DNA of 64,000 nt from Bilabrum cf. latius (lineage: Eukaryota). The notes beneath the pieces are model-generated. The model was given only the letters and a program-made list of their open reading frames with translations. It was not told where the DNA came from and made no database searches. Both the position numbers and the translations under genes were made by a program. Shown piece after piece: positions 9,001 to 44,900 of the stretch. Positions within the stretch are counted from its first letter, which is position 1. The number at the start of each line of letters is the position of its first letter. Where the stretch lies: positions 682,001 to 746,000 of the forward strand of contig OZ237739.1 of assembly GCA_965178125.1 (NCBI GenBank). Reading direction: 5' to 3'.

Positions 9001-9758
9001 GCATTCCTTCTGCTCGCATGATGACCGCTGCCGCTGCCGACCGCGCTAGTTCCGCCTCGAGGCCTGGTGCCAAGCCGCTTCACCGCAACACGCGCTCTAC
9101 TGCTCTTTTCAATTGCTCTTGGCCGAGGTACTAGACGGTCCAACGCAGAGTAGAAGGAATAGTACTGCTGGCGAAGGACCTCTTGGGCACCAATCATGGC
9201 TGGACTGGGGTCTCCTGCGGGGTCCGAGCCGCTTGCCGCCACGGCGGCGAGTTTTTCGTCACCTACGGCGCCAGCCGCAGCAGGTTTCCAGGTGGTTTGC
9301 AGCGATGGCAACTTTGGTGCAATGCTGGATTGTTTTCCTGATACATCCATGCCCACCTCGCGATCCACTCCACGGTCAGCGAGCTGTATTCGCAACTCCT
9401 CCGTGACCTCTGCGTAACCCACGTTCGCTTCGATTTCAGCAGCACTTCTATAGCGACTTGGGGAGCTCGAAATGCCCTAATAAGTTGATGCTAGCGGAGC
9501 TTCTTGGGATTCATGCTCCTCCAAGAGCGCACGATTGCCTTTGTTTCTGGCAATATCGCTCTGTTTCGTTTCCTCCTACTCGTCAATATCAAAGGCATTT
9601 CGCAATTCGGCCACGGATAAACTTGCCAGACTTTGCTGTTTGTCTCTTCTCTTCTTTCGAAGTCTTCTTGATCGGTCAGACTGTTTCACAGTCTAATCAA
9701 TGGAGAATGGCGACTGTACAACCCCACCTGCTGCACTAAACCACTCATTACGCTACAT
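12..9758 (-). CDS. Giant (~3248 aa) intronless protein with IQ motifs, ankyrin repeats, WW domains and a TPR-like segment (TAG read as Gln)
   Basis: ORF pieces 8682-9422, 7629-8678, 6849-7166, 6435-6710, 5616-6191, 5184-5531, 4320-5036, 2805-3698, 2589-2801, 2250-2570, 792-2237, 405-698 and 12-323 share one frame and are separated only by TAG (~26). ATG at 9758, TGA at 14-12. IQ motifs (AATRI*HAYR, ARSV*RAWR, ATVIQSRWR), ankyrin repeats (GKSPLHVAV, GNTALHYAA, EI*DTEGLTPLMLAA), WW domains (EEWDKLYTKDGQEYFFNPRSKRTVWVLP; WERVAGTDGTVVFVNRRTGKWS). Confidence 0.85.
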
Positions 9759-13000: not shown

Positions 13001-15661
13001 AAGTAGTCAAGCTTATCGGGAGTTGGGGTGCGCCAGCTGTCAGGGCCACGCTCGGTATCGGCTGCTCTGTGCCTGTACGACGACGCTGGTAACGTCACAG
13101 TATACAATATCGAAAGCCTGCTTGAAGAATCTCTGAGCTAGAAGTACCTGTTTCAGATTCCAGATGACTCTTTCTCATATAATAGAGGCAGCTATGAGGC
13201 AATGCGTACCGTCAGGCTGAGTGGTCGACCATACCCAAGGCAGCACATTGGCTTGGTCACGCGCAGATCAACCGGCCACACCGTGAGAAGTAGCTGTGAC
13301 GCTAAATCAGTCCATCTTCAACCTGTTCGATAGTTTTAGGCTCATGCAGAGTCCATGCGGACTGGATAGCTGCTGCGGGTTTCTGGGTAGTATTGTGTGG
13401 CGACTGGTGGGATGGATGGGAGGGTTAGAGTGTGGTCAGTCGGCGGAGCCATCCTTGGATAGCTGTGCACGCCACAGTGGGAGGCACAGCTGTGGGACTC
13501 TAGCTCCAAGGCTAGCCCTCCGACCTGGTTGTTTCCCTCCGAGCTGGAAGCAGAAAGGGAGCGAGCAAGGTAGGAGGCAGAGAAGCTGGCCAGGCGAGTC
13601 ATCAGCGAGAGCGGCCAGCAAGCAGCGGAAGATCTGGACACAGTCGACAAAGGGCTGCATCAATATTAGTCATCGACATTTTTGACTGGAGTCGGGCTAG
13701 ATCAGGACCCGTCAGCACCAGCAGCGAGCTCGACGGCCGATGCACCGGGAAGCCTTCGCAGCAAGTCTCAAGCAAGCGTAGCCTCTGTTCTGGGAATGAC
13801 ATCATCATCCAGGACTGAATTGATGTTTGCAGGCAGTTCACCGCTTCGACTCAAGCATGACCGCAATGCGTTGGGCAGAAGCACAGAACCGCCGGTCGGT
13901 CTTCTAGCCCAAGCCAGGCGCAGCAACGGCGAGAACGAGGTCGATGAAGGCGAGTTGGTTCCCCTTGAAGTGATCCAGAACTTGGACTAGTAGCGCGTCG
14001 TTGAAGACCTTGCGACAGAGCTCGATGGTGGCAATCGACGAAAACCTTCTAGACGCGAGATGCGACGAAAGTCCGCGTATTCTGGTGCGGCATCGGTCAG
14101 GTCACACGGCGGCAAGACTGCCAGTTGGACGGAGCAGCTCCTGCCGCAAATGTCTGCGGTTGCACGAGCCAAGTACGAACTATCGGTTAGAGAGCGCGTC
14201 AAGGCACTGTACAAACACGCGGCTCGGGACAGGTTATCTGGCATGGGGGTTACAATGACAAGCATGGAGCAGAAACATGAGCGCGCGGTGCAAGCAGTTG
14301 CAACCGTGTCGCCCTTTCTGTCTTCACGATTGCCTGTACTCACTGAACGCAAAATAGATTCAGAGGAGAGCCGAGGGGCGGCTAGTTCCCGTAGGATGGT
14401 TGGGTCGCCTATCGCCAACTCTAGGAAGTCTATTGCCCGGCAGCCAACCACGCCTGGCCAAGAGGTTCGACGCAGTGCTCGTACAGGAGTGATGTTGAGC
14501 TAGCGCATGCGATAGAAAGACAGTATGCCTGGAGTGCACCAACTCAAGTCGGATGCAACGAATGACCGTGCAAAAGCTGGGAAAAGGGTCGACTCGGTCG
14601 TCGCTAGCAAACTCGAATAGTCAATGTTAGCACTGTCTGCAGCGAAAGGATCGGCCATTGCTGCTGTTGGGCAGGTGCCGCATTCAAGGTATCGAAGAGC
14701 ATCCACTGCCATGGATCGAGCCAAGCTCGAGAGTTTACTCCATTCCCAGGCTGCTCCTTCCGAAGCCGCGCCACAGTCTGGCAAGGGAGAGCAGCCAGGT
14801 ACTGGCAAGGGAGAGCAGCCAGGTACTCTCGAGCCGACCCGGAAGGTTGGGTCTACCCATCCGGGTCTTTTGCCTCCTCTAGAAAACGATCAGAAGTCAA
14901 ACGGTAGTGATGATGAAGAGCGTGACGCCTACTTGTTGAAGGCATACAGAGCTGCCGGCATCAAGCCTCCCAAGCCACGAAGGAGCAAGGTCTCCAAGAC
15001 TGACAAGGTCAAGTGGAGTGGAAGCCCAAGGAGTGGGGCAGGCGGTGCTGGCGACGGGTCTGATGGTGGTGAAGACATTAAGGTACCGACTCGCTTCGGG
15101 CCCTATTCCGCTTTGGAAGTAATTCGGATGAGGCGCCTCTTTGAGAGCATTGACAAGGACGCGTCTGGCAGCGTTGAGCTGCACGAGTTACAGGGAGCGC
15201 CAGAGTGGAAGCAACTCTTCTCGGACGAGGAGATCAGGCAACTCTTCGAAGCAATGGACATTGATGGCAGCGGAGATGTTACACTATTCGAGGTCTTCAG
15301 AGCGGCGTTCCCGGTGGCCACCGCATCGGACATCAGGCTGATGATCCGGACTACCAGACTGTAGCGCACTGTTAACATACAGCCGGTGAAAAAGGTTAAG
15401 CGAGAGCTATCTGCAGGGTAGAAAGCAGAAATCGAAGCGGTGTTCCGGGCGTTTGATATCCACGGCAAAGGAGAAGTCACTGTGGGCAACATCAAGCAAG
15501 TCATGGAGTAGTACCGAGGCTTGCTGTCCGACGTGTTCGGCATCAAGGAGATCACAGATGTGCTCGCGGCCTACGACGAGGATGGCAACATGGCCTTTGA
15601 CGTGGACGAGTTCACGGTGATGATGAAGGACAGGTGGCTTGCAGACGTGGACGGCCAATGA
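10076..15661 (+). CDS. EF-hand + WD40-repeat + C-terminal EF-hand protein (~1861 aa; WDR49/EFCAB8-like architecture; TAG read as Gln)
   Basis: One frame from ATG 10076 to TGA 15659-15661 with ~27 TAG and no TAA/TGA. N-terminal EF hands (DETDGDGLTLDEF; DVNGDE*LEWSEF), WD repeats (AHADVVTSI...DKKVQLWD; GH*SDVVAM...MFRVWE; AHAES...GGMDGRVRVWS), C-terminal EF hands (DKDASGSVELHE; DIDGSGDVTLFE; LSAG*KAEIEAVFRAFD; DEDGNMAFDVDEF). Confidence 0.85.
14779..14826 (+). repeat. 24-bp in-frame tandem duplication (GKGEQPGT x2)
   Basis: ctggcaagggagagcagccaggta occurs twice in succession. Confidence 0.8.
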
Positions 15662-15735
15662 CAGCCAACAGGATGCGCAGGACGAAAATTGAACTAGGAT
15701 AAGACTGTTGTTTTCTACACCCCACATACGGCACC

Positions 15736-18700
15736 TCACATGGTACCCCCTGAATCCCCGACCGACTCCTCCTCTTCGTCCTCCTCCTCTTCTTCTTCGC
15801 TCTCGGACCCCTCCATGACTGCCATTGCAAGCAGAAGCTCAAGCACCTCCTGCTAGTCGCGATGCACGCGGCGCACTTCCTGTCGCGTGGCCTACATCTG
15901 TGCCACGATGTGAGACACCAGGAATGGGTTCTGGATATCCATGGCTTCGATGTGGCGCGGATCAAAGATATTACCTTGAGCTAGGATCCCACTGCTGGTA
16001 CTCGACGCGCCAGAAGGACGCCTCGAATGCCCACGCCTCGCTAATCGGTGCCCTCGCTGGGGCGCATTGACTTCAGTGGTGGAGAGGATCCCAATGCCAG
16101 TTTGTCTAGAGAATTGCGTGCTGTCTGTTTCTCCGCTTCGCGAGGACATCTCCTTGCCAGTTGGCATGATTGCCGGAGTGTTCGACCGTGACAGTCCACG
16201 CCGTGCCGAAGCCGAACGAATCGGAGACGCCGCACCAGGGTCTTGCCCTGCACCGCTGCCCTGTGGGACTGGTGGCACCTGCCATGGCGCCATGAAAGAG
16301 GCTCGCGTATCGCGGGAGGTGCCATGCCTGGCACCATGAGATGACGCTCTCCTGACCCAAGTTTCTCGTCCGCCAGCACCCACTACAATCGAGTTGTTTC
16401 TTGGCGTTCTAGATCGTGAATGCTTCGATGAGCTAGGTACTCGAGCAGTGCTGTGAAGCTTGTCCTCGGCGGAGCCGCTGTCAGCACAAGTAGCCTCGCG
16501 CATCACTCGTGACACAGCGTCTGCAGGTGACCGATCATCCCGTTGAGTGAGGCTCGCAGCAACCTCCTAAATGGCCCCGTCGCCCTCAGATTTGACTCGC
16601 ACCTTCTTGCCATGGAAGGTGCCTGGCTACAATGCATCGCTCGGACTGAATCCATCACCGATTCCGTCGCTCTGCTTGCCGGGCAAGCGCGATGCCTTCG
16701 CTCGCGCCGTTGCGGCTGACATCGAGAGCGACCTTCGCTTTCTCACCTTGTGCAGCGCAGCCTGCACACGAGTACTGCGTGCAACGTCCCCCGGAAGCCG
16801 TAAGTCTTCGCTAGGCTCGTTTGCAGACAGCAATGAGTGGAGGCGAACACCGCCGTGGGGCGTGGAGTAGTGCACCGGACCGGCCTCAGATAGGGGTGCC
16901 AGCATTCCCACAGTCCTCGCACCCGACCCCTGCAGACTGCGAGCGCTGCCGAGCTGTCGCATGGCAGGCGATACGTGAACGAAGGTTGCTTTCCTAGACG
17001 TAGCACCTGCGCTCTACGTGCCCTGGATAGACCCAGCCACCTGCTCTTGAGGCTCTGTAGCAGATTCTCTCAGCTGTTTCGCAGAGCTGAAGCTGAACCC
17101 GTGCCTCTTCATCGGACTACCCGTGGTGTTGAAACCCTGGCCTAGGTCCAGCCGCTCCGAGGGGCTGCCTGTTGGGGTTGCCACGGGCATCACTACGGCT
17201 CGCGCCCCATCAGGCAGTCGCGGCAGCGTCGGAGCCGAAAATCGCCTTGAACGACCCGCTTGTTGCATCACAGCGGCAGAGGCAGCCTGTAGCACATCGC
17301 CGTCGCCACCACCGCTAGCACCAGGATCCTAATGGATGGAATCAGGGCCAGATTCTTCTCGATCGATAAGTGTGTCCATGGCAATACCAGGATCTGCAAG
17401 ATCTGTGGTCAAGTCTCGCTCGTCATTGAATCCCACGGCCTGCGATGCACTCTAACGAAGCTCCAAGGGGGCCTAGCCAGCTATACCAGGCAACACGGCG
17501 CCGCGGATGGGTCGGGCTGCCCCCGGCTCTTGCGCAGTGCCTCCTCTGTTTGAAGTGGCAATCGACCCGCCAGCGATTGACTGGATTGATCTTGTAAAAG
17601 AGTGTGCCCCGTGCTTTGATAGAAGCGTCTAGAAGTTGGCCCCTGTTTCTTGCGCGTGCTCCATGGCCGCAAGCGTCTGCTCAATCAGCTTGCCAGACTT
17701 TTGGGCGATTTCCCGACGCTCACTAGGCGTGACAATGTGATCCTACGACGGCGGGGACGCAAGCAAATTCTTCTTGGCAGCATCCAACGCGGTGTGCAGA
17801 GCCCGCGGGCGACGAGAGGACCGCTTGGGTTTCGAGCCGGTGCTGCCTTGCCCGCCCGTCCCCGCTCGGCTAAGGAGCATCCGGCGGCTTTTCGCGGCAA
17901 CGGCTTTCCGCAGCATGCGCCTGCTCTGCTTTTGAGTGGGCCCCTACGGGCTGCTACCTGCAGCGCCGGTCGACTTGAGCCGCATAGATGATGCCATGTG
18001 CCGCAGCGCGTTCAAGATGTCTCGTCTAGAGTCTCCACTTGCTTTAGGCACAGGGGCACTTTCCCCCTCCTTGGATCCATCGTTGTCTTCGCCAAAGGAC
18101 CCATCTCTCTGCCTGGAAGGCGACGGAGAATTCTTGTAGGAGCCTTGGCTTCCAGTCTTGGAGTCGTGCAAATCCTCAGCATCCGACGCATCGAAGTGAG
18201 AGTTCGAGATCACGATACCGTCCTTGTCCACATTACCAAAGGCCTTGTGAGCGTGGGATGCAAGACCAAGACTACTTCTCCGCGTTTTTTTGCCCCTAAA
18301 TCCGGCAAGCCTGCGCCGCTTGATCCTTCGAAGCCTTCCTAAAGCCACCTCGAGCAGCTCTGCTTCCACCTCGGGATGCTCGCCGAGGATGCTGTCGGCT
18401 TTGTCTCTGTTCACCACAAAGAGCTCCACAAAGGACTGAGCGCGCACGGAAATCACATGCTTGGACGTGCATAGCAGAGCAATCTCGCCAAAGATACTAC
18501 CCCTTCCCAGCCGAAGCAACACTTCCCCATCCAATGAGATGAATTCGACGATGCCATCCGCAACTATGTACAGCGCATTTCCAGTGGACCCTTCTTTCAC
18601 GATAGTCCGCCTCGGTGCATACTGAGCTGGATACGACGCAAGCAGGAAACTGGTGATGAAAGCCGGGTCCTTTCCTGTGAAGAACCTGGCCTTTTGAATG

Positions 18701-20280
18701 ATATCCTTATAGATCTCCAGCACGAGCTCCACCTGCAGCGGCTGGGACAGCTCCCGCAGGAGAGTCTGCTCGTCGAATCCCGTGGCAGACCTTCGCTCAA
18801 AAATAAGCTCAAAGTGGTCTCGCACTCTGGCCCGCAGCCCTGCGCTAAGCTTCTTGGAACTCATGAAGCTCTCCACCTGCTCCATGCGGATACGTTTCCT
18901 GCGACTAGCGCTATCCACCTGGTCGATATAGGCAGCCAAAGTGGCGGTGATAAACGAGAAGAGAACGGCCCCAATGGCAGTAATGATAGTCACGTAGATC
19001 CTCTCGGCCATTGTGACCGGTACGAGGTCTCCAAGACCAAGGGTGCTCAGGATCGTGAGTGACCAGTATATGCTGGCCACGTATCTCTCGTCCAAGGGAG
19101 CATCCAAGAGCTCGTATCTGGCAAGCCACGCATCCGGGTCCGGGAATTCAGAGATAGCCACGAACGAGAACCCGCACGCCACCCAGTGCGAGATCAGAAA
19201 GAACCACATTGCGAACTTGATGATCCGCAGAGAGGCCGGGTTGAAGGTGAGGTGCTCCTGAAGCGGTCGAAGGTACTTGTCCAGCCGCCACGCCCTCAGG
19301 ATCTTGATGAAGCGCAGCAGCTTTAGCAACTTGAACAACCGTGGCAGTCTCAGCAGCCTGAATCCCCTGAGCTAGGAGCCCAAGCTGGGTGCGATGATGC
19401 TGATTGGGATGCTGCCAACGAGGTCTATGGCAAAATACGAGGTCAGGTAGTTCCACCTCACCTGATTCCAATCCACCACCACCTAGTTCTCGTGCTCGTA
19501 GGCGCTGCAGAAGTTCACCCCGATGTCAACCATGAAAAATACATCCACGATAATCTCGGTGATCACCCAAGCATCGTACGTGACTGTCTCGTCGCTGTAG
19601 AAACCGATCCGAAACGGTATTATGGTGGCCGACCAGATGAGTAGCACAACCACGATTAGGTGCCAGACGCGCAAGAACTGGCTGTTCGGAAGCAGGAGCC
19701 ACGTGTTCCTCACGTATTCCGGCAGCTGGTCTGGGCGAGCGTGTTCCAACTCGGCTGCCGAGATCACCCGGGCCGTGCCGATGTCGTCCTCCTGCTCCTG
19801 GCGGATGTGAGCGACTATTGTCATGGCTCGAAATCGCTATCTAACGTTCAGCCATCTCAGCTATGCTCTTTCTTTCGCCTCAAGACTTTCCATTGCACGG
19901 GTGGCCTTCCCGGACGAGCCTGCCGTTGCCGAGCTCCCTGCATCGTACGCATCGGCGACTACTGACGCGGTGCCTGCTGCAGATTCGACAGACTGGTGTC
20001 TTCGTGGTTCACTGGCACCTTGATCTTGTCCAGGCGACTCCCTTGAAGGAGGTCGAGGCTTCGAGGGCGGTCCGGGTACTGGAGTGCGAGGCCCGATCAG
20101 GGCATCGATCCCGGCCCTTGAGCTCCCGACAGTGGGCTCTCCGAGTCTTATCTCATGCTTACTATCTGGAGCATCATGATTTGGCGTTTGCTGCGCCTGC
20201 CTTGCAGAAGCGAGTAAATTAGTCGTCTCTGCTCTGCTGACGACACCGCTTGTGTTTCCAGCAGGATGAACTCTTGACAT
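15736..20280 (-). CDS. Voltage-gated K+ channel of the cyclic-nucleotide-binding-domain family (KCNH/HCN/Shaker-like) with a long low-complexity C-tail (~1514 aa; TAG read as Gln)
   Basis: Pieces 19861-20280, 19483-19824, 17944-19338, 17014-17295, 16627-16962 and 15892-16515 are in one frame joined by TAG; TGA at 15738-15736. S1-S3 (WHLIVVVLLIWSATIIPFRIGF; DVFFMVDIGVNF), S4 (FRLLRLPRLFKLLKLLRFIK), S5 (SHWVACG), pore (YWSLTILSTLGLGDLVP), C-linker and CNBD (FGEIALL). Confidence 0.9.
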
Positions 20281-20743: not shown

Positions 20744-23700
20744 ATGTGGTGTGGAAATGCTGGAATCATCGGTGTATTGACTGCGATACTAACGTCCTCA
20801 ACATGCTCCAGTAGTGTTATTCCGAGCAAGTAGACCTTCTAGCTTCACCAGGGCAAATCATTTTCCGTCTCGCATTCCGTTGGTGGCTCGTATGTGGCGG
20901 GGGTAGAAAACTCCTACTGGCGGTTCCATGCGAATTCATCACGATGCAGAGGTTATTTGAGCGTTGGCAGAATTTCTCTAGAGGATTTTCCAGATGAGAC
21001 CCGTGCAGTTATTGGGTCAGGTCTTTCGATTCAGCTCAGTGGAACTGAGCGAACGGCAACGATTTCCTCGCCTCACCTTCTTGGACCTGATTCGGCTCGG
21101 GCGATGGTGCACCAGGTGGACAAGTGCCCTGGTGATGATGACCTTGCTAGTCCAATTGTCTCAGGGCATTTACTATTCGAGCGATAGCTGAGCGCTGGCT
21201 TAGGGCGAAACCGAACGGCCGATGGCACAGCTCTCGAAGCGACACTTCGTGCCCTTGCAGACGAGCGCCAGGCAACACGCTGGGTTCTCGGTCAGTGGCA
21301 GTTTGGATCTCAAGTATAGCAAAGCGCTGCAAACGAACTTGGAGGGGAGAGTGGCGCCACTGAGGACTCTACTGCTGCAGGGGGCGAATCTTCTGGCACC
21401 AGCAGCCTGGCGCAGTTTGCAGCCCCATCGCCCCTGCCGCTCATGGTGTCGTTTACGGATTCAGGTAGACCATCCGATGGATGTATGGCACGACCGGAGC
21501 TTCGTTGGGACCGCGGTGCGCATCTCGCCGATGCTAGTGAAGCTGGGGCTGCAGCAGCGGCTGTTGTTGGCGGCCGGTCCGGTGCAGGGCTTAGCGACGA
21601 CTAGGATAACTCTAAAGCCATTGACATACTCCCTGTTGGTGCTTTATTAACTCGACCGTAGCTACCAATCACAGTCGAGCAGGCAGAGCGAGCCTCCATG
21701 CCATGGAGTGTGGTCGCATCGCCAACTGAGCGGGTGTCTGCGGGCGGATGGTCCCACGCGCTACCTACGCGAGTGCCAAGTGGGCAGGCCTCACGTGATG
21801 ATAATCGCGCAGTGTCCATGTTTGTTGGTGGGGTCGCGCTACTAGGCGTGTCCACAGGCTCAGGACAGGCACGCACCGGGAGGTCTAGCCCATCAGGGCC
21901 GGCATTCCTGTCGAGGGTTGCTGCATCTGTGGGGTATGCCAGGACTGTACGATGCGGTGGTACCGCCGCCAATCCCGGAAAATGCTGGCAGCAAGTCGAT
22001 CAACTTCCATCCGGACACTCTTCTCGGCCCCTTTGGTTCGTTTTCATCACTGGAGACCGAGACCTGCCTCGGCTGGCAGTCCGCAGTACCGCTGAATGCG
22101 CTGGGTCTGACGCGCTTCCACACCCAGAGGACGATGAGGCTGCCGCAGTGCCCTTCACAGTGCCGCTTAGTGCAAGCGCTCGAGAGTCCGTGGGCTCCGC
22201 GCGTGCAGACCCTGCGAACACCGCCACGCTGTACTCGCTAGCAGCAGGCAGGATGCTGGACGGGCCACCAGCCGGAGTCACCACGCAGGCTGCTAGGTCT
22301 CCAGTTCGCTGGTGCCCCTTCTAGCTACCAGCTGATGGTGTGGTTGCCATGGCACTAGGCCCTACCCCCGGACGGGACCGCGGAGTTGAGACAGGGGTAC
22401 CGCAGTCCGAGGCTGCGGGGACAGGTGCAGACGGAACGACTCCAGTCCTTTTGCATTCGCAGGCAGTACCAGATGCTGCTGCTTCGTTGCTTGCATCCGG
22501 GCAAACTGGCGCCCCGTCCAACGAGACTTCATCCCTGGGACTTACACGGACATCCGATATAGTTGATAATAGCGTGCAGGGCGGGCTGCTGGGACCGATT
22601 GCGTCACCCGTGCTGTCGCGAGTGTTGCAACTGAGCGGCGGAACCCGGGCCGCCGTATCATCCGCTGACTCAGCCACTCCAGCTGACGATGTCTTTGAGC
22701 TCCTGGGCTACACAAGATACAGGATAGGGCCTGGACGCTTGAGAACGAGCTTGAGAGGCAGCATGCGTCTGCAGCAGGGAGGGTTCAGGGACGGCGAGTG
22801 CGGTCTTCGGCTGGAGATCGGGTACAGCCCTGAGGTTCGTGCTGTGCTGCCTTCTGATCTCAACCAAGCCGATTCCTCTAGCGGAGCATCAGCAGATGAT
22901 GACGTGATTACCGGTAGTGGAGGTGGGTCAAGCGGAAGTAGCTCCCGAGGCGGCGATTCTGTAAAGGAGGGTGACCTCCCCCCACTTGTGAGGCGATTTA
23001 GGGTGCTTTGTGATGACTGCGGGGCGGGCCCTTCAGCACCTACCTCTGCTTCAACCCCACGAGGAGGCAGGGTGCTTGCCGAAGTGGACGTGCCTATTGG
23101 GCTGGCAGCACAAATACGGCTGCATCCACTGCCACTGATTCCCACAATGGAGTTGCGATTAGAAGTTGCTGCTTGGACTGACGCCGGCACGTCAAGTCTC
23201 ATGCAACGTATCGAACTTCTGAGGTAGGCTAGTGGGTCAAGTGACATGCTGGCTATGCATCCGCAGTCCAATTCAACTGCCGTAGCGGCGGCGTCTGCTG
23301 GTGGTGCAGGCCTCCCTGCCCTAGCCACTCCTGACCACGGCAGCGTGCCCGCGCAAATGTTCACCAATCAGACCGACTTTGGGGCAAGAGGGTCTGATGT
23401 AAGCGGTGAGATAATTTGGCTTGACTCTGGCCAGAACCCACTTCCAGTTGGGACCACTTGCCGCGCGCGAGTGGGCAGACTAGCCATTGATGTACCTCGA
23501 AGTGATTTGCTGCAAGGCCTGCCTGGCACCCAGGCCGCACTTGCAGGGACATTACCTGTGGGATTGGTAGGAGCAGGGGCTGAGTATAGCGTAGCTTTGC
23601 TTCCTGGTGAGCTGCAGGGTCTTCCACTTGCCTCGCGCCTTGTGGTGCGCAGGCTTCGCTGGCCCTTGTTCTCACCGCAGCTTTCGGAACAGGAGTCTAA

Positions 23701-26700
23701 CAATTGGGCGAGGACCTTTGAAGGTGTGGTCCCTGTGGCAAGCATCGAGGTTACGGTGTCGTTGGGTACCTCTGCCATCTCTACACTCACGATCCACCAC
23801 ACTCTCACACCGGTTGGGGCAGCTGGACATGCCGGGTGCCCAGAGGCACCACGGGATAGCCTGATGGCGGGCCCCAGCACCATGCCCAGCGGCGCCGTGC
23901 CAGGCACACGAACGAGTAGCGCTGGCTTTCAAGGAGAATGGGATATTGATAGTGGAGTGCCTACGCATGGTGCTGCGTGTGGTCTGGTCAGCGCGCTGTC
24001 ACCGAGGCTTGCGCATGCGACCCGATCTGTCCTGAACACGACAACGGGGCAGCTGGAGGCAGTTGCAACGCTTCGACTGCGAGCTGTTGGAACGTTTGTG
24101 CTGCGTGCAATTGCGGTTGCTGATGACCTGCTGCCGTCCGAGGTTCTCACTGCTGTCATTCGGATTGATCCGCCGCTTGCACCCGTTGGACAGCCAATTC
24201 AGAGGTTTGTTAGTAGGCTGCCGTCTTCCGTGTCTTCGTCACAGGCTGGATCAATCGGGATTAGCACACAGAGAGTCCTCTCAGATGCCATGCCGCATGC
24301 CGGTCGGATGGGTGTGCTGACCCCCGCTTCTATTCCGAATGTCACGCACGCAGCTGCAAGTGTTGAAGCGATCGGAGACGCGTGCTTTGCCGGCGATGGC
24401 ATTTATTGCCCTACGAATTGTTCTGCTACCTACTACACGTGCTCAGCAGGGGGTATGTCTAGTGCCCAGCACGTGCTTCCGAGTGGCCTCGTGTGCGCAC
24501 GCGGTCGCATCGAGTACTTCGGCCGCGCCTCTCTCAGGCGAGGAGAGATTTCAGAGTGCCTGGGAACACCTGGCGTTACTCTTCGTGGGGATGATGATTA
24601 TAGCTCTTTCTGCTCGGCGGCACCCGATGGAGACTATTGCACGGCCCCGTGCTCTCGTAACATCTTTTCGTGTGCAGCTGGCAGGGGCAGCCAGGTCGTA
24701 CGTCTAGGGTAGGACTTCAGGTGCTTGAACGGATTGATTATCGAGGCAGATTCTGACGTGTGCGAGGCCCAAGTGGACAGGCGGCAGGCACTGCAAGACG
24801 CTGTTGATGCCGGTAATTTCGACCTCGTCGATGATCACCTACAAGAGGTGTCCACGGAGAGCTGCCCGGCCGGCGACGGCATATATTGCAACGCCATCAC
24901 ACACGGCAGGTGCTCCGAGTCGTACTTCTTGTGCGATGATGGGAAGCGAAGTCGCACGTTTGGGGCCCCAAATGGGACGCTGTGCTTATCTCAGTCGCCT
25001 GGAACTACGCTGGCGGCAATCGTGCACGACACTCATCCGCAGTGCACCGACAAGAGCTTGTCAGCAACGTCTGTGCTGGGGCACATATACAGAGATGGCG
25101 AAACCGCGGCTGATCGTGTGCAGCCTGCAGGGGGTACAATTGGATCTGTCTGTGCGGCAGCTGCTGCGTTTACGGCAGTTGAGCACGCTTATGGCCTGCA
25201 CGCAGGCTGGCTTACCTCAGCTGCTGGAAGCACGGCAGATTCCACCGCCGCCAGCTCCGCAGTTGATACGCAGTCAGCTCGATTGCTTTTGCAGGCGGTT
25301 GCTCAAAGGCGCGAATCAGGTGTTTCGAATCCTGGTGATGTGTTGCAGCCGGACGCAAGCGCACTTCGAAGCGAGCTCGGGGTGCCGGAGGCAAGCGCGC
25401 AGCATGTGCGTGATATGATGCCCGATCAGCCTGCCGCAACGATGCAGTGCGTCTGGTCGACGAACGATATAGCGAGGCGCTGGCCAGCCAAGCGAAGAGC
25501 AGCGGTAGATGGCAGTGCGACCGCTGGGATTCTTGGCGTGGACCAGAGCACGTTTGTTGACAGGACGAGGCCTTCGCAGGGAGAGGCAGCACTCGCTCGT
25601 ACCTACCAGTGCACGACACACTACATGGCCTGTGTCAGGCAGACTGCTCAAGATAGCTGGTGGCCAAGGACTGGGCATACCAGCAACAGCGGTCCGGTCG
25701 CCTTGTCTCCCATGAGCACGTATCGTGGCATGCTGCAGTCAGTCAGCTCGTGGAGCACAGGAGCAGCAGAAGATTGGCAACCGCTTGCAATCTAGCGCGT
25801 ACCACCAGGCACCATGTGCCTGGGAGGGGTGCTGGTACCTGACAACCATCCCGCCTGCGGATCTCTCTTTGACCCTCCCGCTGGCCTACTCAATGGGCAG
25901 CTGGCGGAAGATGCAAGAGAGGGTGATGAGGACGCGTTTGCGGTCTTGCGCGCGGTCGATGCAGCCAGGCAGGTTGGCAGACTTCCGTAGCCATCGAAGG
26001 CGGTGGAAGGCTTTGCCGTGCTACGGGGTATCGAGGAGGAGCATCTGTCTGATGCTGCCTTGGCTAGAGCACGACTTCTCCTCGTGTCATTCATTCGGTC
26101 CATCAACGGCACTCAATTGGCCCGACGACTCACCTAGGCGGCATCAGATGAGCTGAATGCAGGTAAGTCCTCCAGCAACTCAGCTGAAAGCTTTGCAGAC
26201 GCCCTTGCCTTGTCCAGGCAGTGGCCGGCGCTGACCCCGCACCAGTACGTCTGGCTGGAAGTTGTGAACTCCACTGATGCATCGCTCGGAACGGTACCAA
26301 GCAGCCTGTGGGACAGGATATCTGACGCTAGCGTGCGCAGTGGTGGCCCGGCACGCCGCCCTTCCGAGTCTCGGGGATGCACGCCTGCACAACTGGCGAG
26401 AGCAGCCCGAGCGCTCGATGCACTCGCATCCGGAGACGCGCGAGACGCAGCCGCGGCAATTGCCGCGTTCGAGGACCCTGTGTGCGCTTTGAGCATTCCG
26501 ATGAGCAGGCGTCGTCCGGCTGTCTCGCAGTGGGTGTCGAGCGGGCTGTGGCAGCGCGCCCGACAGCATCCTAGAGTTTGCAGTAGAGGCCTGTGCGACT
26601 TTTCTGCCGCCGAAAGCAGAACTGGTGCGCTGGCAGGTGTGCTTGTGACAGCATCGCAAACGAACGGGTCAGACACGGCGAGTCGATTGGTGGGCTTTGG

Positions 26701-28867
26701 AACGAGTCGCGGAGGCAGAGAGCAGAGTCTTCCTGCCAGCTGGGATGGTGCCAGAGGCACGTTGCTTGGAACTAGGCCTGAGCTCGCCGCAGCTGGTTGG
26801 CAAGCTGCAGGAAGCGCTGCCTTTATTGGATCCGGCGCCGTGCCCGATTCCTAGGTAGGCAGCCTGCTGCTGGGAGCAGGTGCACGCGAGGACGACCTCG
26901 GGGCCACCGGAGTACAGTGGACGGAGACAGGGACGGTGTCCAGCAGCGGAATGGCCGCGCCGCTTTGGTTGATGGATTCTAGTGCTCCAACGATCCATGC
27001 TTCTGTGGCAGCGCCTGATGCTGACTTGGGATCCCGCGGCTCGAGCACGGGGGCCGGCGGCTTGCCTCCAAATAGCACTATGAAGGGCCCTCTCAGGACC
27101 GGCCGAGACGCCGCTGTGGTGCAAGTGAGGGTGGGCGTGGAATCTAACGATGATAGAATCGTGCTGGCGCTGGCGAAGGCAGTAGATTTCTTCTTCTCGC
27201 AACCTGCTTTGACCGCAAGGCTGTCGGCTGCGTTGCGTGGCGAACTTGGCTTGACGGGGCAAGACGTCGTCGCCAGTTCGGCTGCCTGGCTTGAGGATGG
27301 CGTGATGGCCCCAGCGCAGAGCAGTCGAAGGTTGCGGTCGTTATCAGATCCAAGGAGACAGAAAAGTGCTTCACCTACACGCAGCAGGAGGCTTCAAGCC
27401 ATCTCACAAGATATGGCGCTGCGGACAAGAGCTCCCGCTGTTGGGTCGGCTGGTGGAGTGGGTGCGGTATGGAGCGGTGGTGCTGGTAACTCGGGCTTCC
27501 GATAGCGTGCGAACCCCCTCTTTCGCGAACTGAATGATGATAGTGATGATGAGCGGTTGCTGTCCGACTGGGCTATCGTTGGAATTGTGACTGGATCGGC
27601 GCTGTTGCTAGCGTTCTGTGGCGTACTGTGCTGCTTGCAATCGCAGAAGAGTGCAGACGAAGAGGGGAAGGGTATCGTAGCTGTGGAGAAACGAAAACAG
27701 CAGCAGCACTCGGCAGGTGGCAAGCGGCGCAGTAACCACAGCCACAGGCACCATCATCAAGACCGCAGCGATTCCAAGCATAAAAGCACCCGCGGGTCAG
27801 CGGTGAAGCGGATTGCAGTCAAGTCGCTTGGTGGTGGTAGCCGTGATTCTGAAGCTGAGAGCAAGTCAATGGGCCGGTCGAACGGTGGCGCAAAAGGCAA
27901 GTCAAAGGTCAGGAAACTTGACTTGCATCGCGGGGCTAGTCCCGTGTTGCCCAGCGGGGGCAGCTCTGGCGGGCGAGGTACGCCCACCTTTCGCGGTGTG
28001 GAACCTCTCTCACCGATGAGAACGACTGGGAGTTCCAACAAGAGGGGCAAACGGCGCGGCTCGACCCACAGAGAGGAGCTAGAGGACCTGGACGAAGTCC
28101 TGAAGGGGGGAGGTAATCTAGAGTATTCTCGCGCTGGAATGGACGAAGAAGCCAGGAGCAAAAAGAAGAAGAGGAAAGGGGGCGCTGATGTGATGGAAAT
28201 CTTCCATGACGCCTAGGAGGAAGAGCGGCCGCCCGAGCTCGACGGCGCTGTTCCATTCGCTTAGTCTCCAACTCCGCGCGGTGGTCGCATTGAAGAAGAA
28301 GAGGAAGATATTGGGGATGACGAGTCCTCCCTCTCAGATCCAGATGAGACCACTTCGAAGCGTCTGCAAGTTGCAGCGCAGCACTTGGAACAGGAGCAGC
28401 GGTGGCAGCACCAGCAGCACCAACACCACTAGCCTGGCATGCAGCCAATGTAGCAGCAACCGATGCAGCAATTCAACGGGGGGTTTGGTGATATGCCTGG
28501 ACAGGCTGGAATCCCGGATACGTTGAAGTAGCAGCAGCAGGAAACGCCAGGAATGCAAGGCTTCGGATCAGCATATGGCGGGACTGGCGGAGGCTTCATG
28601 TCGGGCCCACAACCAGGCGGATTCTCGGGCGGTATGCAAGGCTACGGAGTTGATCCAAGCATGGGCATGGGTTCAAGCATGGGCATGTATGGCACTGGGT
28701 AGGTCCAGCCAATGTATGGCGGTGGCCCTGTCCCGGCCGGCATGCCTCAGGCTGGCGGTTGGGGAGGGGTGCCGCAGGCAAGTAGCAGCGGTCCAATGGC
28801 AGGCCAGCCGTAGTGGTAGGGCGATGGATATGGCCAGGGAATGCCCCCAATGGACGGCTTTGGCTAA
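20744..28867 (+). CDS. Very large (~2707 aa) type-I membrane protein: signal peptide, Cys-rich repeats, one TM helix, Gln/Gly/Met/Pro-rich cytoplasmic tail (TAG read as Gln)
   Basis: Single frame from ATG 20744 (MWCGNAGIIGVLTAILTSSTCS, signal-like) to TAA 28865-28867, interrupted only by TAG. Three to four C..DG.YC...C...Y..C..G units at ~24380-25050; TM WAIVGIVTGSALLLAFCGVLCCL at ~27570-27640; tail HQHH*PGMQPM*QQPMQQF. Confidence 0.75.
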
Positions 28868-29062
28868 GTACTATGCGCTCTTCGTTGGCTACTGACATGG
28901 GCATCCGCGAGTCTTCGTAGTTATCACCTAGGGCTGTCATTCATTCAGATGTATGCCACTCGGTTGTATCAAATAGCGTGGTATATTATATGCAAGCACA
29001 GTATTAAATGCACAAGAAGCAGGCAAACAAGCAACCAAGCCAAGCAGCTGGGCATCGCTGCG

Positions 29063-30889
29063 TCACCCTAGCGTCGGCTATCCACACTTGTACTCGCGAG
29101 GCAAAAGCGGCTTCAGCTGTGCGACAACGTCGGGGTGGTCTTGTAGCACGTCCGACATTTCGAACGGGTCGGCTGCAACATCGAAAAGTAGTTGAACCCA
29201 ACCGTTCTTGTCGGGCCTGTTCGGCACAGTGGTCGCAGCCCCAGGGCAGGAACCTCGGCAGCAGATGAACTTCCAGATCGGCGACGGCGTGCCATTCTCG
29301 CGCACCACGTTCAGATTGGTGGCCGTGGCATTCTCAGCCTGCACGACCATGCGCCAGTTGTACCCGCCGTTGGCGTCGCTCTACTCGCTGGTTACTGCAT
29401 CCGTGTTCCAGTCGCGCTCGGCATCTTTCCCAGAGGCGCCAAACGGCGTGCTCTGCAGCCCGCTGCTGACGTACGGTCGCACGCTCGGGCTGCTGCCCTC
29501 CAGCACAGGCCGAAGGGACCGTGACGTCATGCCCTCTGGCACGTCAACCCCAGCGTAGTCCAGGATTGTCGCCGCGATGTCCATCACTGTGGCGGGGGCG
29601 CGCACCGTAGCATTCTGCCGGATGCCGAGGCTGGGGGCGCGGAAGACCAGGGGCACGTGCGAGGACCCCTGGAAAGGCTTGGTCTTGCCGACGACACCGT
29701 GGTCCAGCAGCATCTCGCCGTGGTCGCTGGCGAATATGAAACTGCGATAGGGGAGAGGGGCGATCGCAAACTGGCAGACTGTAGCAGAAGGATGCACGCT
29801 ACGCACAGTGGAACAGTGTTCTAGTGTAGAGGGCAGTCGAGTGTACGACCCGCGCAGCTTCCACTGCGATGCGCGAATCAAGGCGCCCAACGAAACTCAC
29901 ACGGTGTTGTCGGCGACCTGCTGGCGGTGCACCTCTCCCATCACCGCAGCCATGGCTTCGTCAAGTCTCTCCATCTCAGCCGCGTAATCGCACCTGTTGG
30001 ACTTGCTCGTGGCTGGCTCTCCGGTGGGGACGCAGGTGATTGAGGCCGACCGGTGGGAACCGCTCTTCTTGTAGTCCACTGGACCAGGGAAGGTGCGGCC
30101 TGCCACCACCTTGGTTTGGTTAGTGGTTACCGAGAACGGAGGGTGCGGCCCCGGCCAGCTGATCCACAGGGCGAAAGGCTTGTCAGTGGGCCGTCGGCGC
30201 AGCAGCTCAAGGGCGTTCCGAGTGGTGAAATCATCTTCGTACACGAAGTCGTTGTAGCTGGTGGAGTCGCACAAGGGGTCCGATGGACCCTTGCGCAGGC
30301 AGGCGCGGTGGGGGCCCCAGGCAGACATCTCCGTGCCGTTCTCAAGAGAGACCGTCTGGTTGTCGAGCCAGAAGCCATAGGGCTCGTGCGGCGTCTGTGT
30401 CGAGATCACGTCGTCTTTCCCGCTGAATCGGATCCAGTCCTTGAAGCCGAGGGCTACTGCATTCGTATCGCCATTTGGACCTGGCTGAGTAGTCTTTGTG
30501 AGATCGTCTTTGCCCGTGGTTGCCGTGTGGTAATTTCCCGACTTGCTCAGCGCCTGGAAAAGGTTGGAGATATTCGTCGGCACATTCCCGCAGAAATTGC
30601 ATGGAGTACCAGCGCTATCATATTCACGACCAGTAACGATCGTTGCCCGACTAGGGGCGCACACTGGGGCGGCCGAGTACGCATTTGCGAACCAGGTCCC
30701 TTCGTTCATAAGACTCGTCAAGAACGGCATCTACAGCGGGATCGGGGCGCCATCATCGTTCGCACCCTTTGATTCAGGCATCCAGTCTCCGCGCCACTAG
30801 TCAGGAAACATGAACACGACGTTTGGCCGGCTGGGATCCGCTGACGCAAACGCAGAAGATGACCCTGCAATAAGGGCCAGCAGAATCAT
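29063..30889 (-). CDS. Secreted formylglycine-dependent sulfatase (choline-sulfatase/arylsulfatase-like, ~555 aa), 2 exons (29901-30889, 29063-29741)
   Basis: Signal peptide MILLALIAGSSSAFA; PNVVFMFPD*WRGD; CAPSR formylglycine motif; GKDDL; SWPGPHPPF. Splicing restores NTVFIFASDHGEMLLDHG; SHVPLVF; LFDVAADPFE. TGA at 29065-29063; 4 in-frame TAG. Confidence 0.9.
29742..29900 (-). other. Spliceosomal intron (159 nt) in the sulfatase gene
   Basis: GTGAGT...CTATCGCAG; removal deletes an in-frame TGA and rebuilds the conserved NTxxIFxSDHG motif. Confidence 0.85.
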
Positions 30890-41948: not shown

Positions 41949-44900
41949 TCAGCCGATCCTGTACAGCTCGAACCCATTCGCGGCCGTGAACGCAGTCAAA
42001 TACAGCTTGCCGTCGAACCACGTCAGGTAGCCTGCATAAGGGGTCGGCATGGCACTCGGGTCGGTGAATCTAGCGCATTCGTGGTTCGTCTTGCAGGTCC
42101 ACACGTGGTCGTCGTCACCGCCTCCGACGAACCACAGTTTGTCCCCGCTCGGGGCGGGCGCCAGGTACTCGGGTGAGACGCCGTTACCTCCCTGAACCAG
42201 GTCCGCCACGATGGAGCACGTGTCATCCGTCCCGCAGCTCCACAGCTCCGTTTGGTACGCGTTGGTCACGGCCTAAAAGTACAGCCTGTTGTTGAAGACT
42301 GCCATGTTCTTCGGGTTAGATGGGGTGCCTGCAGCCGGCTCGATGTCCTAGACCAGAGCGCAGACGTCACTGGTGTCGCATGACCACAGCTCTCGCTAGT
42401 AAGGGCTCACAATGGCGCTAAAGTATAGCTTGTTGTTGAACACCGTGATGTCCGCGATCGCGGTGCCGGTCGCTCCTGCGACAATCTCGACTGCAGTGCA
42501 AGTCTCGCTGGTGTCGCACTTGTGGATCTCCTCACCAGTCGTCTGCGCTTTGGCCTCGAAGTACAGGTGATTATTTAGCACTACGAGACCGGCAGGTACC
42601 GAGTTGCCGTTCGTCTACGGTGCGAAGTCGCGGACAAGCCCGCACTGGTACTGGCCGTCGCAAGCATACAGCTCGCGGAAGGAAGTGGGGTCAAACGCCT
42701 AGAAGTAGATCTTGCTGTTGAACACGGCAAAGTCGGTCGGCAACGACCCCGTTGTACCTGGCTAGAGCTCGATGTAGTCGCAGTTGTTGCTTGCATCGCA
42801 GTAGAAGGGCTCCTTGCCTCCCGCTCCGCTTGCCGTGAACCAGACCTCGCTGTTGAATTCGGTGAATCCGCTTGGGTGGGAACTTCCAGTTCCGGCGTTG
42901 ATGTCCATCACAAGCTCGCATGTCCCGGAGGTGTCGCATCTCCAAGGCTCTTTGCCCTCGTTTACGGACTTGGCTCCCATGTATAGGTGTCCCAGGGCAA
43001 CGGCCAGGTGGTTGGGGCTGCCTGAGTCGCTGCCGGATTGGAACTCGTGGAAGAGCCCGATGGTGGGAATAGCCGATGGAGAGGGGGTATTGCTGGGCGA
43101 ATGACTTGGGGTTGGTGAGTTGGACGGGGTCTGGGAAGGAGTGGCCGAAGCACTGCTTGTAGTGGACGGGGTCTGCGATGGGGAAGATAGGATACATGCT
43201 TGAGCCTATACCAAGAAGAATAGCAGGGAAGCGGTAGCAGACGTATTGTTATAGTAATGCGCAGCCCAAGCGTCTCACGGGAGTCGATGAAGCCGTCGAC
43301 GTGGTTGAGGGTGTAGGTGTCTCCGAAGGGGTGCTGCTGGGGGTCTGCGGCGATCACAGACGAGAGAGGTCACGGCAGCAGGCGCGGGGATACAGTGTCT
43401 AGGAAACCATTGAATCTTTCATGGGGAGTACTTTTTTCGTTGCCAGAGGAAGCCATAATATGGTTATCCGATTGCCAACCAACTGAATGTAGGGCTATCT
43501 CTCACCGGCGTCTGGGTTGCAGTAATGGAAGGAGTCGGTGTCTCGCTTGGCGTCTGCGGGTGTGTTTGGTGATGGCACAGCTGATGGTAGGTGCGATTGC
43601 GGATGTAATGTCTTTGTTGCCATTCCTCCCTTCAATCAGCGGGAGGAAGAAATGCAAGGCAGGATACAGCAACGGCGGCTCGTGGCTCAATTGTATTCTC
43701 ACGGGCGTGCTTGAGGCCGTATTGGTGGTAGACGGAGTCGGCGTGGCAGACGAAGTCGAAGTTGTGCTGGGGGACTGCGATGAATTGTTGGAAGGGAATG
43801 GATGCGGTTCGGTGGGTCTATCACCACTGGCTGCTGGGCAGGAGGAGCCCGGCGACAGAGGGGTTTAGCTGGGCGGGAACTACGATCATCTCACAGGCGT
43901 TGCACTCGTGGTAGGGGTCGTGCTAGGGGTAGGACTGACCGTAGCTGTGGATGTCGTGCTTGACGTCTGCGCGGGGGAGGGTACGCATAGATTTCATGTC
44001 ACGAGGGGCACTACTTGCTCTGTGGGCGACTAAATCGATGCTTGGGGGTGCACAGAGACTCACTGGCGTGGCGCTGCTGGTGGTTGTGGTCGATGGAGTC
44101 GGTGTGGCGCTGCTGGTGCTTGTGGTCGATGGAGTCGGTGTGGCGCTGCTGGTGCTTGTGGTCGATGGAGTCGGTGTGGCGCTGCTGGTGCTTGTGGTCG
44201 ATGGGGTGGGCGTGGCGCTCGGCAGCTGGGGAACAGACGAAGCTTGGGCCGCCACAGCGGGCTCTAGAATCCTCCGTACGCCACTGATGACACTGCCGCC
44301 GATAGTCGTGGCGCTGCAGCCGCTTGTTGTTCCCTGGATGGGCTCCTCATCACTGGCAGCAGCTGCGGCTTGGGCATGCAGCTCGCCAACCACGCGGGCA
44401 ACATCGGCCGCAGTAGCGTTGCTTCCAGGCACTGCAACGACTGAAACGGCGACGTAGGCCTCCGAGCTACCCTGAGCAGGGGTGCCAGCGGTGATGGAGA
44501 TCGAAGGCCCGGCGTCGATAGCCGCGGTCACGGAGTCTATCCAGTCGTGTTGCACCGCGGCCTGCGTCCCTGGCTCCAGCGGGTTGCATGGGATCGTGAT
44601 CTGGGCTTCACGCGCTGGCTGCACGAAAACTTCGGCACGCGTCATGATGGCTTCAAAGTGCGTCCCGTTGGTCAGCCCCGCGATAGTGGCTTCGTCCAGG
44701 GACGCGCCCTCGGCGCAGCCGGTGCCAAACGTGCCGGGCGGGCACTGGCACGCGCTCACACCCGTATGCTAGCCGCCTGAATGTAGAGGTGTGCATGAAC
44801 CATCACCACACGCATTATTGTCGGCGCTGTCGCATCTCGCTGAGCCCCAGGCGGATTGTAAGGGTGAGGAGGAACCGTTGGTCCCGCCGTCGTCCCCGCC

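Follow-up and report, generated by a model that had tools for sequence, protein, structure and literature searches.

The 64-kb stretch of DNA analysed here, which we call the window, very probably follows the nuclear code of a GC-rich, intron-poor eukaryote in which UAG specifies glutamine and UAA and UGA are stop codons, with TAA 28865-28867 as the genuine stop codon of an 8.1-kb gene. This codon table is the "genetic code 15" of the literature. UAG is a sense codon that behaves as the Gln codons do. UAA is missing from the interiors of coding sequences (CDS) and serves as a gene terminator in two related species, and UAA and UGA replace each other at one orthologous gene end, that of a WD40/EF-hand gene. 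A preliminary description of this DNA had proposed from a single TAA that UAG is sense while UAA remains a stop. The proposal is now supported beyond that one codon, by two TAA-ended orthologues on L001, a syntenic metagenome contig from a related species.

The 8.1-kb gene converges on a sulfatase gene, and the features of this locus are as follows.

20744..28864, plus strand: CDS of the 8.1-kb gene, coding for a 2,707-residue protein (ATG at 20744; 22 in-frame TAG; orthologue in L001)
28865..28867, plus strand: TAA stop codon of the 8.1-kb gene (from the sequence, the drop in GC and coding score, and an L001 orthologue that is also TAA-ended)
28868..29062, no strand: spacer of 195 nt between the convergent genes, GC 0.477, presumably the 3' UTRs of both
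29063..30889, minus strand: sulfatase gene with a TGA end and an intron at 29742..29900 (GT..AG, minus strand), from Pfam and structure alignment

The ORF of the 8.1-kb gene (20744..28867) thus holds 2,707 sense codons, 22 of its in-frame triplets being TAG, and is closed by TAA. Its product gave no match in Pfam. Hydrophobic parts of the protein are a stretch at the N-terminus and a single segment close to the C-terminus, and its tail is rich in Gln, Gly and Met. Repeated TAG in this Gln-rich tail, followed by a TAA end, had been pointed out previously and was confirmed, with six of the 22 TAG located within the last 145 codons.

We compared the DNA on the two sides of the TAA. GC content falls from 0.633 in the final 300 nt of the CDS to 0.477 in the spacer, similar to that of the other intergenic spacers (0.486-0.490). 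The 65 in-frame codons past the TAA have a codon-usage log-odds of -6.8, while 41 CDS blocks of equal length gave a mean of +4.9 (sd 4.5) and a minimum of -4.9. Both GC and coding score therefore drop to intergenic levels past the TAA, in agreement with the UTR-like composition originally noted there. The next in-frame stop is the TGA at 29522, 218 codons downstream, and the stretch leading to it overlaps the convergent sulfatase CDS in the antisense direction.

We then took a census of stop triplets across the window, which has a base composition of about 60% GC. Other genes referred to below are as follows.

12..9758, minus strand: ankyrin/IQ/WW gene, 3,248 residues, 26 in-frame TAG, TGA end (Pfam)
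10076..15661, plus strand: WD40/EF-hand gene, 27 in-frame TAG, TGA end (Pfam; L001 orthologue TAA-ended)
15736..20280, minus strand: cyclic-nucleotide-gated (HCN-like) K+ channel gene, 15 in-frame TAG, TGA end (Pfam; homologues)
55545..57479, plus strand: DBH-like copper monooxygenase gene, a single TAG at 56076-56078, TGA end (Pfam; homologues)

The window also contains an ApaG ORF, which is TAG-free. Thirteen gene ends were accepted, 12 with TGA and one with TAA; eight of the 12 TGA-ended ORFs are backed by Pfam domains, length or orthology and four were accepted as ORFs only. The earlier statement that the other genes end in TGA is thus true for all 12. The codon census covered nine confident CDS segments with a total of 44,373 nt, or 14,791 codons with the terminal codons left out. 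TAA occurred 0, 30 and 50 times in the three frames (in-frame first), TGA 0, 221 and 335 times, and TAG 114, 112 and 124 times. The zero in-frame TAA previously given for about 45 kb of CDS therefore holds for this set. UGA is likewise kept as a stop, with no internal in-frame TGA and 12 ORFs ending in it.

Under the standard code, ORFs of 300 codons or more add up to 13,533 codons; with TAG freed the sum is 31,718, and with TAA alone freed it is 13,968. The longest frame with in-frame TAG extends over 3,248 codons, genes reach 9.7 kb, and Pfam domains extend across the TAG-bearing ORFs. Standard-code gene calling, which turns the 31,718 codons back into 13,533, shatters the proteins of this organism, and this may be why a protein database search with the WD40/EF-hand protein brought up no relative of full length. 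The search returned generic WD40 matches only (20-35% identity over 5-35% of the query, mostly bacterial), so these matches carry no information on its TAG sites.

L001 was found by a metagenome scan with the core of the HCN-like channel. Two further hits of the same scan, L002 and L003 (23% and 31% identity), were left out of the comparisons, and no relative came up when metagenomes were scanned with the last 784 residues encoded by the 8.1-kb gene. Orthologues in the window and L001 are 51-53% identical. That of the 8.1-kb gene (L001 440..8929, minus strand) is 53% identical across 2,628 aligned residues and also ends in TAA, with a GC of 0.47-0.48 beyond the stop versus 0.57 in the final 300 nt of the CDS. 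The WD40/EF-hand orthologue ends in TAA as well, three codons beyond the position of the TGA in the window, and the DNA of the two species is conserved as far as the stop and divergent beyond it. Readthrough of this TAA would add more than 150 codons, first across a 93-nt spacer with a GC of 0.45 and then in antisense direction into the channel gene. Two of the three gene ends in L001 are thus TAA; together with one of the 13 in the window, the TAA-terminated genes number three. Among the 6,593 codons of L001 we counted 52 in-frame TAG and no in-frame TAA, against 30 TAA in each of the two other frames. Further, the orthologue alignments between the window and L001 contain no TAA opposite any sense codon.

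The reading of UAG as Gln is supported by codon pairing between orthologues and by TAG sites in conserved motifs. For the pairing we used well-aligned orthologous sites only, a filter passed by 34 of 69 TAG in the window and 16 of 53 in L001. The 34 window sites face CAG (13), CAA (5), TAG (4), CAT (3), AAG (2) and seven single codons, and the 16 L001 sites face CAG (5), TAG (4) and seven others. CAG or CAA is therefore the partner at 18 of 34 and 5 of 16 sites, respectively. The partner profile of TAG (Q 47%, TAG 16%) is like that of the Gln codons themselves (Q 47%, TAG 11%), and Gln beats the next-best residue, Lys, by 51 log-likelihood units.

Individual sites were more varied. The sulfatase TAG at 30797-30799 falls on the Q of a conserved 'DQ.R' motif and is Q in three of the four solved structures aligned; a second sulfatase TAG is matched by K, E, I and K in the aligned structures and does not point to Gln. 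The single TAG of the DBH-like gene corresponds to Q in nine of the 13 best homologues, and also in human DBH. Over all 58 homologues this column has K 25, Q 9, E 6 and S 5, the K coming from animal MOXD1 proteins. Two IQ motifs of the ankyrin/IQ/WW gene carry TAG at the Q position (6768-6770 and 5616-5618). The EF-hand TAG corresponds to Q in the calmodulin N-lobe and to S in the C-lobe, and two TAG sites of the HCN-like channel, E and D in HCN channels, lie at variable, uninformative positions. The internal repeats of ORF 41949..43274, compared by eye, gave one TAG/Q match, the remaining columns being variable. Around TAG codons, Gln was only weakly enriched (1.32-fold, p = 0.02).

We considered whether the meaning of these codons might depend on context. 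In Condylostoma, karyorelicts and Blastocrithidia nonstop, UAA is a frequent sense codon with a context-dependent meaning, and in Blastocrithidia it still terminates. A code of this type would make UAG, and perhaps UAA, both sense and stop, with proximity to the 3' end deciding between the two. The DNA studied here resembles those systems in that a stop codon is used as sense in a nuclear genome. One TAG lies five codons ahead of the sulfatase TGA and two lie 15 and 17 codons ahead of the TAA of the 8.1-kb gene, and, judged from the DNA alone, termination may occur at such 3'-proximal TAG. However, no gene requires TAG as a stop, and the orthologous C-termini of the WD40/EF-hand proteins reach TGA or TAA with no TAG close by. 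Unlike in those systems, no sense UAA was seen, the window and L001 together having none in 21,384 codons. Moreover, dual use of UAG is absent from the UAG-only codes as these are presented in the pertinent parts of PMC11687900. We therefore regard a context-dependent code as improbable.

A second alternative is that UAA is also a Gln codon. Codes of the table 6 type (UAR = Gln) occur in many ciliates, in Dasycladales/Cladophorales, in hexamitin diplomonads, in Streblomastix and in Amoeboaphelidium. They share UAG = Gln with the window; UAA is Gln there too, whereas here it closes genes and is missing from CDS interiors. If this ciliate/dasycladacean code applied, UAA would be rare through the high GC content, and the 8.1-kb gene would end at the TGA at 29522. 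Consistent with such rarity, the window has fewer TAA (188 and 185 on the plus and minus strands, respectively) than either of the other two stop triplets, and a single one of its genes is closed by TAA. However, A-ending codons are common in frame (CAA 147 vs CAG 435; GAA 230 vs GAG 592). With TAA used like TAG and at the same ratio as CAA to CAG (147:435), the window should contain about 38.5 in-frame TAA. The Poisson probability of the zero observed is about 2e-17, though the test involves some circularity, since TAA was treated as a stop when the ORFs were drawn. About 25.2 would be expected in L001 if TAA were used as a Gln codon, and again none was found. The 218-codon extension is non-coding in composition and score and antisense to the sulfatase CDS, and both TAA-ended L001 orthologues are followed by spacer-like DNA. 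Taken together, these points make Gln-coding UAA very improbable, and leave UAG as Gln with UAA as a stop as the preferred reading.

We also examined contigs of sequencing runs over the locus. Contigs of runs X5, X6 and X7 cross the TAA at 28865-28867 without a joint, and those of X5 and X6 skip the sulfatase intron (29742..29900). The three runs were guessed to be RNA and X5 was flagged 'probably DNA', the intron-skipping contigs being the sole sign of transcript origin. The X5 contig that covers the entire 8.1-kb gene (20627-29741) is the same contig that lacks the sulfatase intron, and it differs from the window in no letter, indicating that the TAG codons are not edited away. That the in-frame TAG are assembly errors, pseudogenes or sites of UAG-to-CAG RNA editing, under the standard code with an ordinary TAA, has nothing in its favour except the low prior probability of any variant code, and it is the least probable of the alternatives in view of the 114 in-frame TAG over nine CDS segments with their long open frames, the same pattern with 52 in-frame TAG in the independent contig L001, orthologue conservation that continues across TAG sites, and the spliced X5 contigs, which retain every TAG with no differing letter. 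The X5 and X6 contigs span the spacer (28868..29062) and run through both convergent 3' ends, so they are uninformative on transcript ends. An X7 contig ends at 29009, 142 nt past the TAA; it comes from a single study and was left out as evidence.

With UAG as Gln and UAA as a stop, UAG would be decoded by a tRNA-Gln with the anticodon CUA, which would be unable to pair with UAA. Such a tRNA could derive from tRNA-Gln(CUG) via a single anticodon change, and a tRNA with the anticodon UUA should be absent from the genome. The eRF1 would have become weak or blind towards a G in the third position of a stop codon and would still read UAA and UGA. A putative tRNA-Gln(CUA) combined with a UAG-blind eRF1, as put forward in the preliminary description, is what one would infer by the standard argument, which is logically sound and is identical to the one made for Iotanema in the relevant part of Panek et al. 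2017 (PMC5304391). The only tRNA gene in the 64-kb window is a tRNA-Gly(GCC), L001 contains no tRNA gene, and no eRF1 domain was found among the 22 window ORFs scanned against Pfam.

The preliminary description had presented UAA and UAG as changing together in most variant nuclear codes. This framing is incomplete, since it omits decoupled codes that are already published, and the surprise is accordingly smaller than it implied. According to the portions of PMC5304391 and PMC11687900 that treat them, such decoupling has been in print since 2017 (Iotanema, several ciliates and others), and decoupled nuclear codes are rare, comprising Iotanema, exLh, Scotinosphaera, Protocruzia and a few phyllopharyngean ciliates; one ciliate has UAA = Lys and UAG = Glu. 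The passages on 'UAG' in PMC6733595 concern plastid codes and are irrelevant here.

The closest parallel in codon meaning is Iotanema spirale (Fornicata), in which UAG = Gln and UAA and UGA are stops (Panek et al. 2017; passages on its code in PMC5304391). As in the window, UAG alone has gone to Gln and UAA is retained as a terminator, with the same inferred tRNA-Gln(CUA) and altered eRF1. The same passages describe Iotanema as an anaerobic metamonad with UAA as its primary stop and report a change in the GTS motif of its eRF1 (PMC5304391). By contrast, the DNA studied here has about 60% GC, encodes an O2-dependent copper monooxygenase and has TGA at 12 of 13 gene ends in the window. The lineage is evidently distinct from that of Iotanema.

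Three ciliates, Hartmannula sinica, Trochilia petrani and Protocruzia tuzeti, also have UAG = Gln with UAA as a stop, as given in the corresponding sections of McGowan et al. 2024 (PMC11687900). They share with the window a reassignment of UAG only, to Gln, with widespread in-frame UAG and UAA never used as sense. Unlike here, where UGA dominates in the window, UAA stands at 86.9-98.3% of their gene ends and UGA is the rarest stop, as stated in those sections (PMC11687900). UAG has been captured alone, with UAA and UGA as stops, for other amino acids as well: Leu in the rhizarian exLh (in the part of PMC5304391 that mentions it), and Leu in TARA phyllopharyngeans and Ser in Scotinosphaera (both as cited within PMC11687900). 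The amino acid sets these apart, as Leu and Ser fit the partner profile in our data far less well than Gln does.

In the main texts of an open-access library and bioRxiv, we found no report of UAG-only reassignment to Gln in a GC-rich non-ciliate lineage. It is conceivable, at slightly below even chances, that the window represents an unreported independent origin of UAG = Gln with UAA = stop, in a GC-rich, aerobic, non-ciliate protist with weak stramenopile hints, in which the code would be old enough to be common to two species with orthologues of only 51-53% identity, and UGA the main terminator in the window. If true, such a GC-rich case would speak against the AT-pressure-driven loss of UAG as a route to its capture. 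Each independent case is a test of whether UAG and UAA can be told apart by eRF1 and the tRNA pool, and a GC-rich, UGA-dominated one common to two divergent species would broaden the known conditions for UAG capture. It would also provide a natural eRF1 that ignores UAG yet reads UAA and UGA.

As to the affinity of the organism, the gene structure, in which genes as long as 9.7 kb lie on a contig no shorter than 64 kb, does not look ciliate-like, and neither do the best named homologues of the channel, which are from an oomycete and a diatom. Named channel homologues also include one from Rhodelphis, and the three have identities of 24-30%. Named homologues of the DBH-like protein come from a brown alga, from animals and from the transcriptome record of a red alga; apart from these, its best homologues are 41-46% identical.

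The window, with a GC content of ~60%, is nuclear DNA from a eukaryote and has long genes that are almost without introns. When all three stops were enforced, ORFs of at least 300 codons in the window summed to 13,533 codons; freeing TAG gave 31,718, and freeing TAA alone gave 13,968. Pfam domains on the long frames were ankyrin/IQ/WW, WD40/EF-hand, ion channel with cNMP-binding domain, sulfatase, copper monooxygenase and FG-GAP/TIG. The ORF of the 8.1-kb gene comprises 2,707 sense codons, with 22 TAG in frame. Its product matched no Pfam domain, and has a single hydrophobic segment close to the C-terminus and a Gln/Gly/Met-rich tail. As the preliminary description had it, TAG is repeated in this tail (6 of the 22) and the gene ends at TAA:

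28865-28867, plus strand: TAA stop codon of the 8.1-kb gene, closing the ORF opened by the ATG at 20744

We found that the 8.1-kb gene really terminates at this codon. GC was 0.633 over the last 300 nt of the CDS but 0.477 after TAA, in a spacer of 195 nt ahead of the convergent sulfatase stop (29063-29065); the other intergenic spacers in the window have a GC of 0.486-0.490. We also calculated a codon-usage log-odds score in 65-codon windows, trained on genes other than the 8.1-kb gene. The 65 in-frame codons past TAA scored −6.8, against a mean of +4.9 (sd 4.5, minimum −4.9) for 41 windows of the same size within the gene, the last three ahead of TAA scoring 4.3, 3.6 and 7.1. The spacer-like GC and the negative coding score bear out the UTR-like composition reported after this codon. 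The next in-frame stop is a TGA at 29522, 218 codons downstream, and the frame up to it runs antisense to the sulfatase CDS, scoring 0.3 per 65 codons compared with 10.4 for the sulfatase's own frame.

Among the sequencing runs whose contigs match the window, contigs of X5 and X6 lack the 159-nt GT..AG sulfatase intron (29742-29900, minus strand), and a second GT..AG intron, of 110 nt (31116-31225), is missing from an X5 contig. These contigs therefore behave as transcript-derived, with the caveat that X5 is flagged as probably DNA and none of the matching runs is recorded as RNA. An X5 contig across 20627-29741 has no differing letters, so the 22 TAG and the TAA of the 8.1-kb gene are unedited. 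Further, no contig has a joint at TAA 28865-28867, and the codon is therefore not spliced out.

We then counted stop codons in nine confident CDS segments (44,373 nt, or 14,791 codons, terminal codons left out).

Stop triplets by reading frame in the window CDS
TAA: frame 0, 0; frame 1, 30; frame 2, 50
TAG: frame 0, 114; frame 1, 112; frame 2, 124
TGA: frame 0, 0; frame 1, 221; frame 2, 335

The earlier statements that ~45 kb of CDS holds no in-frame TAA and that the other genes end in TGA both held, the gene ends of the window being 12 TGA and one TAA. A-ending codons are frequent in frame (CAA 147, CAG 435). If TAA were a Gln codon with a CAA:CAG-like share relative to TAG, the expectation would be ~38.5 TAA in frame; a count of zero then has a Poisson probability of ~2e-17, in a test that is partly circular because the ORF limits were set with TAA as a stop. 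The signal after TAA at 28865 and the comparison with orthologues in L001, a metagenome contig of a related species, are independent of this circularity.

L001, found by scanning metagenome contigs with the channel core as query, covers 21,376 nt out of the 24,932-nt contig Ga0136560_1000269. Its gene order is that of the window from 9.7 to 28.9 kb. The channel orthologue has 85% identity over the best segment, and the remaining orthologues are 51-53% identical to the window proteins, so L001 comes from a different species. It carries the counterpart of the 8.1-kb gene:

L001 440-8929, minus strand: orthologue of the 8.1-kb gene, with 22 TAG and a terminal TAA

GC in this orthologue is 0.57 over the last 300 nt of the CDS and 0.47-0.48 past TAA. 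The WD40/EF-hand protein ends with '...KDRWLADADAGNGT' then TAA in L001, and with '...KDRWLADVDGQ' then TGA in the window. In the DNA alignment of this gene, conservation is codon-like as far as the stop and gives way to divergence beyond. Readthrough of the L001 TAA would add >150 codons, first through a 93-nt spacer with a GC of 0.45 and then along the antisense strand of the channel gene. The 6,593 codons of L001 CDS contain 52 TAG, no TAA and no TGA in frame; TAA occurs 30 times in each of the other frames, and ~25 would be expected in frame if it were Gln-like. One L001 gene ends in TGA and two in TAA, giving 13 TGA and three TAA for both species. With two TAA-ended orthologues and no in-frame TAA in L001, UAG as sense with UAA as stop is supported beyond the reach of a single window, and the observation at TAA 28865-28867 is confirmed. 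At L001 ~11020-11101 the frame of the channel orthologue shifts where nine A's follow one another, which is probably a homopolymer error of the metagenome assembly and not a real frameshift or intron.

We aligned the window and L001 orthologues codon by codon and also compared TAG sites with homologues; taken together, the reading of UAG as Gln is well supported, and the remaining residues tested fit far less well. In the codon alignment, sites were kept when at least 5 of 10 neighbouring residues were identical. The window TAG that passed (34/69) face CAG 13, CAA 5, TAG 4, CAT 3, AAG 2 and seven single codons in L001; the L001 TAG that passed (16/53) face CAG 5, TAG 4, GCC 2 and five single codons. 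The TAG partner profile (Q 47%, TAG 16%) resembles the one for normal Gln codons (Q 47%, TAG 11%) and puts Gln ahead of the runner-up, Lys, by 51 log-likelihood units. At the sole TAG of the DBH-like gene, nine of the 13 best homologues carry Q, two E, one A and one R. When all 58 homologues are counted, K (25, from animal MOXD1 proteins) outnumbers Q (9), E (6) and S (5) in this column, which also has three gaps and ten others; Q is present here in human DBH, and E in PHM. The sulfatase TAG in 'FPD-x-WR' corresponds to Q in three of the four solved sulfatases shown and D in one, and a second sulfatase TAG lies in a variable column (K, E, I, K). In the ankyrin/IQ protein, [ILVM]x..[FWY][RK] matches 16 times, with Gln at x in 11 and TAG as its codon in two of these 11. 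The TAG in the EF-hand lead helix aligns with Q of the calmodulin N-lobe and S of the C-lobe, and two channel TAG are at variable positions, where HCN channels have E and D.

A plausible mechanism, already put forward in the preliminary description, combines a tRNA-CUA with a UAG-sparing eRF1. Since UAG is decoded as sense but UAA is not, the tRNA in question would be expected to have the anticodon CUA; one with UUA would wobble onto UAA as well as UAG. The eRF1 would have to retain recognition of UAA and UGA and spare UAG. The same argument is made in passages of Panek et al. 2017, which indicate a GTS-motif change in Iotanema eRF1 (PMC5304391), and likewise in parts of McGowan et al. 2024 (PMC11687900). 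The only tRNA gene in the window is tRNA-Gly(GCC), L001 has none, and no eRF1 domain was present in the 22 window ORFs scanned.

The codon table here, with UAG as sense (Gln) and UAA and UGA as stops, is genetic code 15 of the literature. NCBI names it the 'Blepharisma nuclear code'. The term 'genetic code 15' occurs in the abstract of PMC9523058. Reassignment of UAG only, with UAA kept, is described in passages on Iotanema spirale (Gln) and rhizarian exLh (Leu) (PMC5304391), and on Scotinosphaera (Ser), Protocruzia tuzeti, Hartmannula sinica and Trochilia petrani (all Gln) and three TARA phyllopharyngeans (Leu) (PMC11687900). The decoupling of UAG and UAA is therefore not new in itself. According to the same passages, the main stop of Iotanema is UAA (PMC5304391), and UAA ends 86.9-98.3% of genes in the ciliates H. 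sinica, T. petrani and P. tuzeti (PMC11687900), whereas TGA is dominant in the window. What sets the present case apart is its genomic setting (~60% GC, long genes, a large contig), and the same code is common to two divergent species. Named homologues of the window proteins are distant and mixed in taxonomy, and no report fitting such an organism was found in the open-access papers and bioRxiv preprints searched.

Sequence near-identical (at least 99%) to 12000-31900 is present in X1, X5, X6 and X7, filed under three coded organism names in three studies; X7 has one difference, G>A at 30215. These matches could be strains that were labelled differently, or an organism present as a cohabitant or contaminant. 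Introns 29742-29900 (minus) and 31116-31225 (plus) are the sole ones detected in this interval. As the latter is upstream of the ATG at 31985, the low-complexity gene probably starts before that ATG.

A tandem array at 45506-48964 consists of ~26 copies of a 133-nt unit (271-nt double unit) at 92-93% identity. It adjoins tRNA-Gly(GCC) (48946-49018, minus strand), and every unit has a copy of a 34-nt segment covering the 3' end of this tRNA and its flank. About 1.3 units also lie at 40007-40187, and L001 has zero copies. Three further loci were noted:

41949-43274, minus strand: ORF with a Ser/Thr/Pro-rich linker followed by six ~48-residue repeats ('..ELWSCDTS..C...' type)
51590-52438, minus strand: ApaG-domain gene
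52555-54078, minus strand: second ApaG-domain gene, in tandem with the first

The repeat-containing ORF has seven in-frame TAG and no Pfam match. The ApaG genes are nearly identical in their C-terminal halves, suggesting that they were duplicated locally and recently. They contain no TAG, and beside them lies a 45-nt repeat in six copies (51095-51363).
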